Below are positions 36,001-41,714 of a DNA stretch of 41,714 bases, in pieces. Origin of the DNA: a virus. Taxonomy: Duplodnaviria > Heunggongvirae > Uroviricota > Caudoviricetes. Location: IMG/VR virus record IMGVR_UViG_2537562190_000018; one strand, 5' to 3'. Every line of letters starts with the position of its first letter. Positions within the stretch are counted from its first letter, which is position 1. The position numbers were made by a program.

Positions 36001-39000
36001 GTGGCAGCATGACACCGGACATTATCCTGCAGCGTACCGGGATCGACGTGAGAGCTGTCGAACAGGGGGATGATGCATGGCACAAATTACGGCTCGGCGT
36101 CATCACCGCTTCAGAGGTTCACAATGTGATAGCAAAACCCCGCTCCGGAAAGAAATGGCCTGACATGAAAATGTCCTACTTCCACACCCTGCTTGCCGAG
36201 GTTTGCACCGGTGTGGCTCCGGAAGTTAACGCTAAGGCGCTGGCCTGGGGAAAACAGTACGAGAACGACGCCAGAGCCCTCTTTGAGTTCACTTCCGGCG
36301 TGAATGTTACTGAATCCCCGATCATCTATCGCGACGAAAGTATGCGCACCGCCTGCTCTCCCGATGGTTTATGCAGTGACGGCAACGGCCTTGAACTGAA
36401 ATGCCCGTTTACCTCCCGGGATTTCATGAAGTTCCGGCTCGGTGGTTTCGAGGCCATAAAGTCGGCTTACATGGCCCAGGTGCAGTACAGCATGTGGGTG
36501 ACGCGAAAAGATGCCTGGTACTTTGCCAACTATGACCCGCGCATGAAGCGTGAAGGCCTGCATTATGTCGTGATTGAGCGGGATGAAAATTACATGGCGA
36601 GTTTTGACGAGATGGTGCCGGAGTTCATCGAAAAAATGGACGAGGCACTGGCTGAAATTGGTTTTGTATTTGGGGAGCAATGGCGATGAAGCATCCTCAC
36701 GATAATATCCGGGTAGGCGCGATCACTTTCGTCTACTCCGTTACAAAGCGAGGCTGGGTATTTCCCGGTCTTTCTGTTATCCGAAATCCACTGAAAGCAC
36801 AGCGGCTGGCTGAAGAGATAAATAATAAACGAGGGGCTGTATGCACAAAGCATCTCCTGTTGAATTAAGAACGAGTATCGAGATGGCACATAGCCTTGCT
36901 CAAATTGGAGTCAGGTTTGTGCCAATACCAGTAGAAACAGACGAAGAATTTCATACGTTAGCCGCATCCCTTTCACAAAAGCTGGAAATGATGGCGGCGA
37001 AAGCAGAAGCAAACGAGAGAGACCCGGCATGACAACAACAGAATGCATTTTTCTGGCAGCGGGCTTCATATTCTGTGTGCTTATGCTTGCCGACATGGGA
37101 CTTGTTCAATGACACCTCAGCAAGAAAACGCCCTTCGCAGCATTGCCCGTCAGGCTAATTCTGAAATCAAAAAAGCCAGACAGCAGTTTCCGGATAAAAA
37201 CGTCGATGACATTTGCCGTAGCGTACTGAAGAAGCACCGCGAAACGGTAACGCTGATGGGATTCACACCGACTCATTTAAGCCTGGCAATCGGCATGTTA
37301 AACGGCGTTTTTAAGGAACGGTGAACATGAAAAGCAAAATCATCAGGGAGCTACAGGCTCCTTTTTTATTATTCGCATTTACCCTCAAGCGTATTAACCA
37401 ACAATTCAGGGATTAATGAAAGATGGCGGACATCATTGATTCAGCATCAGAAATTGAAGAATTACAGCGCAATACAGCAATAAAAATGCGTCGTCTGAAC
37501 TACCAGACTATATCCGCCACTCATTGTTGTGAGTGTGGCGATCCCATAGATGAACGAAGACGCCTGGTCGTTCAGGGTTGTCGGACTTGTGCAAGTTGCC
37601 AGGAGGATCTGGAGCTTATCAGTAAACAGAGAGGTTCGAAGTGAGCGAAATTAACTCTCAGGCACTGCGTGAAGCGGCAGAGAAAGCCGGTGAAGATAAG
37701 TGGCAGGCTAAAAAAATAAATGGTGATTTTTTCGTTATTCGTCACGGTAGTTATACAAGACAGCATGGCTACACATCGTATCAACCCATTGCGGAGATTG
37801 ATTGTAAGCCAGTCCGGGATTTTGTTGCCAAGGCTAATCCGGCTACCGTGCTGGAATTACTGGATGAACTGGAAGCAGCAAAAAAGCGCATTGCAGAACT
37901 GGAAGCGCGGGAAATACTGCTCCCGGAACGTAGCAGCATGCTTCATCGAACAGATTTTCACGATGATTACCAAACGGTAATGGCATACAAAGTTTCTGAA
38001 GTCATCGATGCAATCCGCGCTACTGGCATTCGCATCAAAGGAGAGTGAGATGATTCACTACCACGGTGGGCCTATTACTCCTGATACGTGCGCAATGAGA
38101 GCATGGAAAGGGCGACATGCGTTTATCAGTTTTGCGCATTCAGGCCAGATCAATCTCGCGGCTGAATACTGTCAGTCGTTCGCGCTGGACAACGGTGCAT
38201 TCACCGCCTGGAAAGCAGCTGGCAAAAACAAAATCGACTGGAGCGATTACTACGAGTTTGTTGCTCGCTGGAAGAATCACCCAGGATTCGATTTTGCCAT
38301 TATCCCGGATGTTATTGATGGCGGAGAGGAGGAAAATGATGCGCTTCTGAATGAGTGGCCTCACGGAAAACTAGCTGGCGTTCCAGTGTGGCACGTGAAT
38401 GAAAGTGACGAGCGATTTATTCATTTGTGCAATGAGTTTCCGCGAGTGGCTATCGGTAGTTGTGGCGACTATGACGTAAAGCGCCCAACTCTTGCGGTAG
38501 CCAGAATGAAAGACCTGATTCGTCACATTGTTGATGGGCATGGTCAGCCGGTTACGAAACTACATGGATTGCGCATGTTAAATCCGCTGATATTCACAAA
38601 ATTACCCTTAGCCAGCGCAGATAGTACGAACGTCGCTCGAAACATCGGTATTGATAAAGCCTGGTCTGGGGCTTATGCACCTGCAAGTAAAGAGACACGC
38701 GCAGCATTAATGGTAGAACGGATTGAGGCACACAATAGCCCTGGTTCTCTTGCGTATTGTGAACAACGCGACCGCTTTGAAATGCAATTGCAACTAGCAC
38801 TTTAAGGACTAACAAATGACCACTATTACCAAAGAACGTATTGAATTGTTCATTAAAAATCCGCTTGAAAACGGGCTTACTCGTGGCGAACAAATGGAAC
38901 TGGCACGAATTGCACTGGCATCACTGGAACGCGAACTGATTCGCCACGAGCATGCCAAATGGTCTGACTCCACATTTGGCTGCGTTGGCCCCATTGGTCC

Positions 39001-41714
39001 ACTGAAACACCTCTCAAAAGAGGCTCTGGAAGCCGCAGCCGAACCAGACGATCTCAGCGAGTGGGCTGATATGCATTTCCTGTTGTGGGATGCACAGCGC
39101 CGTGCTGGCATCAGCGATGCTGAAATTACCGCTGCTATGGAAGATAAATTGAAGATCAACATGGAGCGCCAGTGGCCTGAACCAAAAGATGGTGAGCCTC
39201 GCTTGCACATTAAAGAACCCGGCAACTCTCCGGTAATTCCGGATGGTTTATCCACGGTATGCGCTGAGGCTTATCAGGTTGTAGGAGTTATGGCAGATGC
39301 GCTTGGTGTATTCGGTGATGCAGCAGTACAGAAAGTTCTGGATAACCTGTCACAGCAAAAACTTGTTCACAGAGATGTGCTGCCGTTCTCGCTTCCGGTA
39401 ACTCCGGATGGTTGGATAAGCTGTAGTGAGCTAATGCCAGATGATGGTCAGCACGTAATTATTTTATGTGATGGCGCATTCGTTCTTTATGCGCAATATC
39501 GAGACGGAGAGTTTTTCGATATTGTCCGCAATGGTGATGAATTTTTCGAAACACAGAGTCGCAATGTAACCGACTGGATGCAACTACCAGAACCTCCTCT
39601 TTGATAGCTAAGCTTATACATATCTTTTACATCAGCAATCTATTGTTAATCTCCAATCAATGTTACGTTGTCATCTCTCTCATGCTTTGGAGGTAGTGAT
39701 ATGTCTTGTCCAAAATGCGGTTCTGGAAATATTGCAAAAGAAAAAACAATGCGTGGATGGTCTGATGATTATGTGTGCTGCGATTGCGGATACAACGACT
39801 CTAAAGACGCATTTGGAGAGCGTGGTAAAAACGATTTTGTCAAAATTAATAAAGAACGCGAAGGCAACGAAAAAAGCTAATTTATTTATTCATATATGAA
39901 AACAATGTAACCAATATTCGAATTGAAGAACTGAAAGAACACCAAGCCGCCTGATGGCGGTTTTTTTTATTGGAGACAAGAAATGTCAGATTTGGCTATG
40001 AAGGTTTTGAAATGGCAATCGACTGGCGATGTTGGCATCAGTAGCGCAACTCTTGCCTCAATCGCATGTGGACTGAAAAAGAATATCTATGGTCATCACT
40101 TCGGCGCTCCCCATGACGCAGCCGATTTCAGACGATGCGTTGCACTTGTTGAGCAGATTCCAGAAATCAGAGATTCATTCAACAAGGTTGCAAAGCGCGT
40201 TCCGGCATTCAAAGGAATCCTCAACGAATGGGATTCCCTCGTTGCTCTGTTGAAGTCTGAAATGAAGATACACGGAAACAAAGCACCAGAGACTTACAGA
40301 AGAATCAGCGAGCTACGCAAGGACTAACCATGAAATAACACCGCCTCACACTCGGTGAGGCCTGTTCATTGCTCAATGATATCCAGACCTACCATCGCCG
40401 CATCAATGCGGCTTTTTCTTGCGTGTAATTGCGGAGACTTTGCGATGTACTTGACACTTCAGGAGTGGAACGCTCGCCAGCGACGCCCAAGAAGCCTTGA
40501 AACAGTTCGTCGATGGGTGCGCGAATGCAGGATATTCCCTCCTCCGGTTAAGGATGGAAGAGAGTATCTGTTCCACGAATCAGCGGTAAAGGTTGACTTA
40601 AATCGACCAGTAACAGGTAGCCTTTTGAAGAGGATCAGAAATGGGAAGAAGGCGAAGTCATGAGCGCCGGGATTTACCCCCTAACCTTTATATAAGAAAC
40701 AATGGATATTACTGCTACAGGGACCCAAGGACGGGTAAAGAGTTTGGTTTAGGCCGAGACAGGAGGATAGCAATCACTGAAGCAATACAGGCCAATATTG
40801 AGTTACTCTCAGACAGCGGACGCAAATCACTAATAGACAGAATTAAAGGCGGTGACGCAATCACTCTTCATGTGTGGCTTGACCGATATGAAACAATCCT
40901 CACCGAAAGGGGGATCAGGCCGAAAACTCTACTCGACTACGCCAGCAAAATCAGGGCAATCCGAAGAAAATTGCCGGACAAACCGCTCACTGACATATCA
41001 ACGAAAGAAGTGGCAGCAATGCTAAACACCTACGTAGCAGAAGGTAAAGCAGCTTCCGCAAAATTAATCAGGTCAACCCTTGTTGACGTTTTTCGTGAAG
41101 CAATAGCCGAGGGGCATGTGGCAACGAATCCGGTAACAGCAACCCGTACAGCAAAGTCAGAAGTAAGGCGCTCAAGGCTGACAGCTAATGAGTATGTCGA
41201 GATTTACCATGCAGCCGAACCTCTCCCTATCTGGCTAAGGCTGGCGATGGATTTGGCCGTCGTTACAGGGCAGAGAGTCGGCGATTTGTGCAGAATGAAA
41301 TGGTCAGACATAAACGACAACCATCTTCACATTGAACAGAGTAAAACAGGGGCTAAACTCGCCATTCCGCTAACGCTAACGATTGACGCGCTCAATATCT
41401 CATTGGCTGATACACTACAGAAATGCAGGGAGGCCAGCAGCAGTGAAACTATAATCGCATCAAAGCATTACGATCCTCTTTCCCCGAAAACAGTATCAAA
41501 GTATTTTACAAAGGCGAGAAATGCATCTGGACTCTCATTTGATGGAAACCCGCCAACATTCCATGAACTGCGTAGCCTGTCAGCGAGGCTATACCGGAAC
41601 CAGATTGGCGATAAATTTGCTCAACGTCTTCTCGGGCATAAATCAGATTCAATGGCGGCGCGGTATAGAGACAGCCGTGGACGGGAATGGGACAAAATTG
41701 AAATCGACAAATGA

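Follow-up and report, generated by a model that had tools for sequence, protein, structure and literature searches.

The int-proximal end of the lambdoid early-left operon is a hotspot of accessory cargo. The window analysed here is the whole 41,714-nucleotide (nt) stretch of IMG/VR virus record IMGVR_UViG_2537562190_000018 (Duplodnaviria; Heunggongvirae; Uroviricota; Caudoviricetes), and between its Ea22-like gene and xis it carries a block of four genes, here called A, B, C and D. Rather than a system, the block is a piece of mosaic from the lambdoid 'ea' region, in which four accessory genes that assort independently have ended up side by side. Gene A is, on its sequence relationships, a member of the phage DpdA (DNA 7-deazaguanine transglycosylase, TGT superfamily) family and falls in a 'singleton' group catalogued in 2019, 'singleton' meaning a DpdA without accompanying preQ0 synthesis genes. 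The features of the locus are these, the block first and its flanks after it:

38050-38805, + strand: gene A, 251 amino acids (aa), predicted DpdA-family (TGT-superfamily) transglycosylase of the singleton type
38816-39604, + strand: gene B, 262 aa, DUF550/MazZ-like domain followed by DUF551
39701-39880, + strand: gene C, 59 aa, zinc-ribbon protein, the same as P22 EaG, HK620 HkaD and the Sf101 Eag protein
39944-39971, + strand: terminator-like hairpin (39944-39963) with a run of eight T, between C and D
39983-40327, + strand: gene D, 114 aa, basic all-alpha protein, the same as phage 434 ORF114 and present in HK022 too
37423-37644, + strand: TraR/DksA-like zinc finger open reading frame (ORF), 73 aa
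37641-38048, + strand: Ea22-like gene (PF13935 at 2.6e-17), its stop codon 1 nt before the start of gene A
40397-40419, + strand: second terminator-like hairpin, just upstream of xis, in the terminator/pI region annotated in phage 434
40445-40663, + strand: xis, 98.6% identical to lambda Xis

On the + strand the order runs exo, DUF1317, DUF1382, a small ORF, the TraR/DksA-like ORF, the Ea22-like gene, A, B, C, D, xis and int, with int extending past the right end of the window. An earlier account of this DNA, drawn from its letters and referred to below as the sequence-only reading, described the layout well. The four genes are intact + strand ORFs, and the good ribosome-binding sites (RBS) it credited to them can be read directly as Shine-Dalgarno sequences at normal spacing: GGAGAG for A, AAGGA for B, GGAGG for C and GGAG for D. 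The 251-aa start of A is supported by the peptide MIHYHGGP, which is the conserved N-terminus in 28 homologues. That none of the four is a lambda gene is borne out by the comparison with lambda 27500-33500 (the int-cIII region), to which A-D show no similarity (all E > 0.04), and that the block takes the place of ea8.5 agrees with its position, which corresponds to lambda ea8.5/lambdap35. Exo, Xis, Int and the TraR-like ORF match lambda at 75-98%. The int-proximal end of the early-left operon carries accessory cargo here, as had been said, and an internal terminator candidate is present, a G+C-rich hairpin of 8 pairs (-13.1 kcal/mol, z = -3.15 against shuffles) with its T run, although its coordinates are 39944-39963 rather than 39946-39968. 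Prediction of sigma-70-like promoters on the + strand over 37000-41000 gave none, and an Rfam scan of 36500-41714 found no RNA family. Upstream of the block, the TraR/DksA-type ORF is 97% identical to translated lambda NC_001416 30395-30613, between ea22 and orf61, where the RefSeq lambda record annotates no coding sequence.

The sequence-only reading had listed gene A as an unknown protein. The protein matches the PHROGs family phrog_887, 'queuine tRNA-ribosyltransferase', at 1.8e-102, and tblastn against phage genomes places it among a graded series of relatives: BTP1 and SPN3UB at 92%, SfI at 67%, gp38 of the Pantoea phage MED16 at 38% (E 2e-34), HK106 gp29 at 36% (6e-32), gp032 of Salmonella phage 7-11 at 36% (E 2e-24) and, most distantly, the DpdA of Iggyvirus Knedl at 25% (E 7e-6), whose gene lies beside folE, queD, queC and queE. 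The matched proteins of HK106 (YP_007151699), 7-11 (YP_004782407) and SfI (YP_009147480) are accessions that Hutinet et al. 2019 list as DpdA in Supplementary Data 1, a table that also has BTP1, SPN3UB, SEN1, PEAT2 and Vibrio phage Athena1. Hutinet et al. 2019 describe a gamma-proteobacterial cluster of 'singleton' DpdAs from phages without preQ0 synthesis genes, and Simoliuniene et al. 2021 have a cluster DpdA/TGT_1 for the singleton DpdAs. Far from resisting assignment, gene A belongs to this catalogued phage group.

The conserved positions point the same way. In an alignment with the MED16, HK106, 7-11 and Iggyvirus enzymes, residues D47, G49, A50, W54, G91, H115, G136, H172, P186, D191 and S192 are invariant. 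The AlphaFold2 model of A is a TIM barrel (predicted local distance difference test, pLDDT, 69.5; predicted template modelling score 0.72), in which D47, G136 and H172 sit at the C-terminal ends of successive strands and D87 just past one; these strand ends are the usual catalytic face of a TIM barrel. By eye, LDNGAF of gene A resembles TDSGGFQ of E. coli Tgt, and ADSTN resembles the FDCV nucleophile motif. The mapping of A onto TGT residues (equivalents of D102 and D280) is tentative, since profile methods failed to align the two families.

Gene A was also considered as a tRNA-guanine transglycosylase proper (Tgt/ArcTGT) and rejected as such: there is no PF01702 hit at E <= 0.1, no member of the A family has a cysteine cluster after D191 of the kind found in the CxCxxC...H zinc site, and the protein has 251 aa against the 375 aa of E. 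coli Tgt. Searches of PDB sequences with A, by phmmer and by profile, returned noise in the form of a designed repeat protein and a nucleoside phosphorylase. The family itself is large and well conserved, with > 7800 clusters at 90% identity and 1540 clusters at 50% identity at E <= 1e-3, and homologues 48-93% identical occur from Enterobacterales to Burkholderiales and Acidobacteria. RefSeq E. coli genomes label the gene 'hypothetical protein'.

A survey of neighbours at 80 loci of A homologues from other species adds context for the family. Clustering of the neighbours at these loci found no universal partner gene of A. A Vut_1/YhhQ-family gene directly flanks A in 9-10 of the 80, and Vut_1/YhhQ is the family of the preQ0 transporter. 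Two loci have queC after A, folE or queD is near in 1-2, and genes for MT-A70 or N6/N4 DNA methylases adjoin A in several. Fusions tell a similar story: the library protein P0317 joins QueD (PTPS) to an A-family domain, and, of the library hits P0304 and P0215, one joins a D12-class Dam methylase to an A-family domain and the other the N-terminal half of A to DUF551. This last chimera is probably a deletion scar spanning A and B. The ties of the A family to 7-deazaguanine precursor supply and to DNA modification are, as far as sequence comparison goes, as expected for DpdA, and the pairing of Vut_1/YhhQ with A suggests a minimal two-gene module that would 'import the precursor and insert it'. 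The association with precursor supply is seen at the level of the A family; the window itself has the singleton arrangement. At the Vut_1/YhhQ loci (L010, L035-L037, L040, L052, L062, L069 and L081), a gene for a short membrane protein abuts the A homologue, in prophage-like loci of Erwinia, Amaricoccus, Moraxellaceae, Achromobacter, Nitrosomonadales and others.

Whether the four genes travel together can be judged from 5426 complete E. coli genomes. Gene A is present in 204 of these, 187 of the 204 copies being at least 99% identical; gene D occurs in 963 and B-like DNA in 1319. The A-B junction is found in 138, and the whole block in only 32, identical in 5 and as a close variant in 27 more. 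That variant has the order Ea22, A, a fragment of B, another DUF550 gene, DUF4752, two other ORFs, D and xis. Other phages deal the genes differently again. BTP1 has Ea22, A, eaA (DUF550), ASCH, a hypothetical gene and xis; SfI and HK106 have A in the early-left operon without B, C or D; HK022, Huey and HK629 have C-D-xis-int without A and B; and phage 434 has D without C. Of the 80 loci of other species, 3 have DUF550 within 6 kb of A and none has it adjacent, and neither C nor D is near A in any. The component genes do not co-occur across unrelated elements, and the idea of a travelling group is thereby lost; this is the outcome that the sequence-only reading had itself named as a refutation. 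For the adjacency of A and DUF550 genes within the E. coli/Salmonella clade, the best explanation is recent shared ancestry, along with recombination in the conserved 5' end of DUF550 genes.

Gene B is the DUF550 plus DUF551 protein that had been described. Its residues 42-137 (~nt 38939-39226) match PF04447, formerly DUF550 and now dATP/dGTP pyrophosphohydrolase, at 141.5 bits against a cutoff of 23 (1e-41, profile positions 1-96 of 97), and residues 199-261 (~nt 39410-39598) match DUF551 (PF04448) at 63.7 bits (2.9e-17). The protein aligns weakly to the MazZ structure 7ody, and its PGAP name is 'dATP/dGTP pyrophosphohydrolase domain-containing protein'. Gene B is accordingly named here as a predicted MazZ-like nucleotide pyrophosphohydrolase fused to DUF551, which may share the activity of its characterised relative, the conversion of dGTP or dATP to dNMP and PPi. 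That activity has been shown, as cited in PMC12884076, only for a fusion protein of the Z-genome Acinetobacter phage SH-Ab 15497. Within gene B, a 20-nt direct repeat (39229-39248 and 39394-39413, 95% identity) encodes PV(I/T)PDG(L/W) and borders the 48-aa middle segment between the two domains; it looks like a linker for module exchange among Ea-region proteins.

Gene C, the 59-aa zinc-ribbon protein of the sequence-only reading, does have a zinc-ribbon pattern, CxxC...CxC, and has long been known under other names. It is 94.9% identical to P22 eaG over all 59 aa and 100% identical to the Sf101 Eag protein by tblastn, within a range of 95-100% for the eaG of P22, ST64T, HK620 and Sf101; HK022-like phages and others carry it as well. 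Its G+C content is 0.39. The segment 39600-39980, which is eaG with its flanks and has the terminator-like hairpin at its end, is markedly AT-rich: its G+C content is 0.36-0.41, that of its surroundings 0.47-0.51. As no + strand promoter is predicted, gene C cannot be called a self-contained moron, and the eaG segment is moron-like only in part. Lar/RalR was tried as an identity for gene C and rejected, since the scores fall short of every curated threshold, PF14354 at 23.0 against 28.6 bits and the NCBIfam model TIGR03655 at 14.5 against 39.6. Pairwise, gene C and Rac RalR share 28% identity (E 0.007); gene C has no match to YdaE, and the empty Rfam scan speaks against a RalA-like antitoxin in the scanned region.

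Gene D had been called unknown. It is in fact a known gene, 96% identical to phage 434 ORF114 and found in HK022. Its homologues form 63 clusters in 5.8 billion proteins, all from Enterobacteriaceae. The AlphaFold2 model is all-helical and confident (pLDDT 93.5), and gene D has no Pfam, NCBIfam or PADLOC family and no fold relative in the PDB. With a pI of 9.4 the protein is basic, and so is not a DNA mimic. In many of its relatives (P0135, P0138, P0150, P0157, P0171, P0173 and P0183) the C-terminal part of D has been joined to an N-terminal piece of a DUF550, Erf, Ea22 or Kil protein. Such chimeras indicate that deletions ending inside gene D have been frequent in decaying prophages, to judge from the sequences.

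By its gene content the window is a lambdoid Stx1 prophage. Three features away from the block are relevant to its state:

30641-31597, - strand: ribosome-inactivating-protein gene (Stx1A-type)
32095-32529, - strand: Q
32567-33875, + strand: IS3-family insertion sequence (IS) element of 1309 bp with rve and HTH_21 domains and 25-nt terminal inverted repeats, between Q and a DUF2528 gene

The IS3-family element is presumably IS629-like, and its context spans 32095-34501. Downstream of the Stx1A-type gene lies a 603-aa protein (28051-29862, - strand) with DUF1737, SASA (sialate O-acetylesterase) and DUF6645 domains; Stx phages typically have a NanS-p esterase in such an arrangement, and we take the gene order here to match it. 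Over positions 37400-40700 the window agrees at 100% identity with phage record Stx1a_EH2115, and also with prophages integrated beside torS in five complete E. coli genomes. Among the ORFs of the window there is no N, cI, cro, cII, O, P or nin gene, whereas an otherwise identical prophage in strain 13E0767 (NZ_CP020107.1) carries ral, cI, cro, cII, O, P and ren at the position of the IS. The IS thus occupies the place of the immunity and replication genes, N and pL, so that the prophage is defective, and the IS629-associated deletion has left the early-left operon with A-D without pL or N. In addition, when compared with NZ_CP020107.1, where bet is intact, the bet of the window (35228-36012) has a 1-bp deletion in an A-run near ~35411, GACGAAAG-AATTT, and so falls apart into two ORFs that overlap. 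The frameshift may be genuine or an error of sequencing.

These observations bear on what the block does, and the reading that we consider probable is a composite one: a mosaic block with a DpdA-type A, a MazZ-like B and orphan genes C and D, probably silent in this prophage. In an intact phage pL would drive all four as delayed-early genes, and N would carry transcription past the two hairpins. Gene A would be a minimal TIM-barrel transglycosylase that, by homology, removes guanine at particular sites in duplex phage DNA and puts a 7-deazaguanine base in its place, either preQ0 or the amide form ADG. The E. coli host has a 7-deazaguanine precursor pathway. Since the phage is without synthesis genes, the base would come from the queuosine-precursor pathway of the host (FolE, QueD, QueE and QueC). 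When the DpdA of phage 9g is expressed alone in E. coli, preQ0 made by the host comes to replace 0.03-0.3% of G in plasmid DNA (PMC6884629), and the singleton-DpdA phages MED16 and 7-11 have dADG at 0.13% and 0.02% of G, respectively. Gene A would likewise exchange a small fraction of the guanines in phage DNA and leave sparse dPreQ0 or dADG marks, which may shield the DNA from some restriction or defence nucleases. Gene A plausibly serves anti-restriction.

Several points weigh against this reading. At the level of the family assignment, Pfam, NCBIfam and PADLOC models and PDB sequences give no match to A; hhalign of A-family alignments with E. coli Tgt gives no alignment, so that the HHpred link published for MED16 is not reproduced here at profile level; and the model of A is of moderate quality and finds only generic TIM barrels with Foldseek. 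At the level of function, modification is very sparse in both singleton phages analysed, MED16 and 7-11, and the G-containing restriction enzymes tested still cut MED16 DNA, with only the Dam-methylation-sensitive MboI and Bsu15I failing. Sparse marks on DNA that is still cut mean that a restriction-shielding benefit is not shown. The presence of ADG in place of preQ0 is unexplained by the proposed mechanism. A literature search found no paper on an assayed lambdoid DpdA, and the BTP1 transcriptome paper makes no mention of the gene. At the level of the mosaic, some DUF550 gene follows A in three architectures among its closest relatives, those of the window, BTP1 and the H36 variant, which leaves some probability for a functional link between A and B.

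The alternative that survives best concerns the state of the block here more than the nature of its genes. The four ORFs may be intact-looking relics in a decaying prophage, without current function, and we lean towards this view somewhat more than away from it. The promoter region has been lost to the IS629-associated deletion, which makes A-D probably silent passengers of a defective Stx1 prophage; the IS629-like element stands in place of N, cI, cro, O, P and nin, with pL and N absent, and the 1-bp deletion in bet, the empty promoter prediction and the many deletion chimeras among the homologues of gene D from decaying prophages all fit. However, prophages that retain an intact immunity region carry these ORFs at 100% identity, and as alleles the genes are therefore functional; transcription may reach them by read-through, whether it starts in the IS or at weak promoters; and the bet frameshift might be a sequencing error.

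A second alternative keeps the family assignment of A and changes its purpose. Gene A would not be a bulk restriction shield; instead, a few dADG marks would mimic the self-mark of bacterial Dpd islands and allow escape from Dpd restriction, or the enzyme would act on another substrate, such as tRNA or the deazaguanylated proteins of type IV CBASS or QatABCD. We regard this as unlikely.

Less probable still, and doubtful on present evidence, is a functional pair of A and B, in which the MazZ-like enzyme tunes the pool of dGTP, dGMP or guanine nucleotides, or clears toxic 7-deaza-dGTP, in support of base exchange by DpdA. The three architectures named above, with a DUF550 gene straight after A (eaA in BTP1), speak for such a pair, as does the A-B junction in 138 of the 204 A-carrying E. 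coli genomes; and a DUF550 dGTP/dATP pyrophosphohydrolase does occur in a genome-modifying (Z-DNA) phage (PMC12884076). Yet with 187 of the 204 copies of A identical at 99% or more, recent common descent accounts for the adjacency. In the other-species loci DUF550 is rarely near A and never adjacent, SfI, HK106, MED16 and 7-11 have A without DUF550, and DUF550 segments are ~6 times commoner than A in E. coli. Base exchange by TGT chemistry, moreover, needs no nucleotide substrate.

Finally, cooperation of the four genes as one undescribed anti-defence or host-takeover module is very improbable: although they are co-oriented, tightly spaced, each provided with an RBS and set in a cargo hotspot, with 5 genomes sharing the identical block and a further 27 having a close variant, they assort independently in E. 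coli (A 204, B-like 1319, D 963, whole block 32), C and D are never near A in the 80 other-species loci, HK022, Huey and HK629 have C-D-xis-int with neither A nor B, 434 has D without C, and the nearest variant has already exchanged B and C for other genes.

The composite reading of a mosaic block leaves the sequence-only reading partly standing in its main suggestion, that this is a reasonable place for an undescribed anti-defence or host-takeover function. Gene A is plausibly anti-restriction, but it is already described, and the four genes are no unit. The proposed check by structure prediction and Foldseek, once run, led from A to generic TIM barrels and from D to no fold relative in the PDB. 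Going by position, C and D may have an undescribed function. Overall the cargo is an ordinary mosaic, in which one gene is an anti-restriction candidate that had been catalogued before and two are orphans of long standing. A further conjecture, to which we give little credence, is that the lambdoid singleton DpdA writes rare site-specific dADG marks from an intermediate of the host QueC pathway, mimicking the Dpd-island self-mark or subverting deazaguanine-based immunity (Dpd, type IV CBASS or QatABCD), and that, independently, the fold-orphan D or EaG is a new small anti-defence or host-takeover factor.

The value of the analysis is mostly in annotation: a widespread 'hypothetical' prophage protein that is missed by Pfam, NCBIfam and PADLOC can be assigned to the DpdA family. 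What has been seen of singleton DpdA activity is sparse dADG in two lytic relatives. For the role of these proteins in temperate phages, a lambdoid phage of E. coli or Salmonella with gene A (BTP1, SfI, HK106 or intact relatives of this prophage, such as those beside torS in E. coli 13E0767 and 2013C-4538) offers a genetically easy model. EaG and 434 ORF114, for their part, are still orphans after decades in model phages.

Compared with known systems, gene A stands closest to the other singleton DpdAs, with which it shares the length class of ~235-266 aa. HK106, SfI and BTP1 likewise have a singleton DpdA in the early-left operon upstream of xis/int; the window differs in its allele and in its flanking genes. 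From canonical phage DpdA1 (9g, CAjan, iggy/Knedl) it is further removed, being ~22-25% identical to the Iggyvirus DpdA, and it has no adjacent folE, queD, queE or queC. The expected level of modification differs too: 25-30% of G is reported for the preQ0-pathway phages CAjan and Rosebush, and the level expected for gene A is orders of magnitude lower. In the same comparison, which also takes in bacterial DpdA (PDB 7ui4) and TGT, gene A has neither a CxCxxC...H zinc site nor a tRNA-binding extension. Gene B shares PF04447 with the MazZ/DUF550 proteins of 2-aminoadenine (Z-genome) phages, but the domain is fused to DUF551 in gene B and to DUF5664 in MazZ of those phages, and no purZ or datZ context is seen in the window. 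Gene C resembles Lar/RalR of the Rac prophage in being a zinc-ribbon protein of ~60 aa encoded between the recombination genes and xis. Gene D and phage 434 ORF114 occupy the same place, directly upstream of the terminator/pI/xis region.

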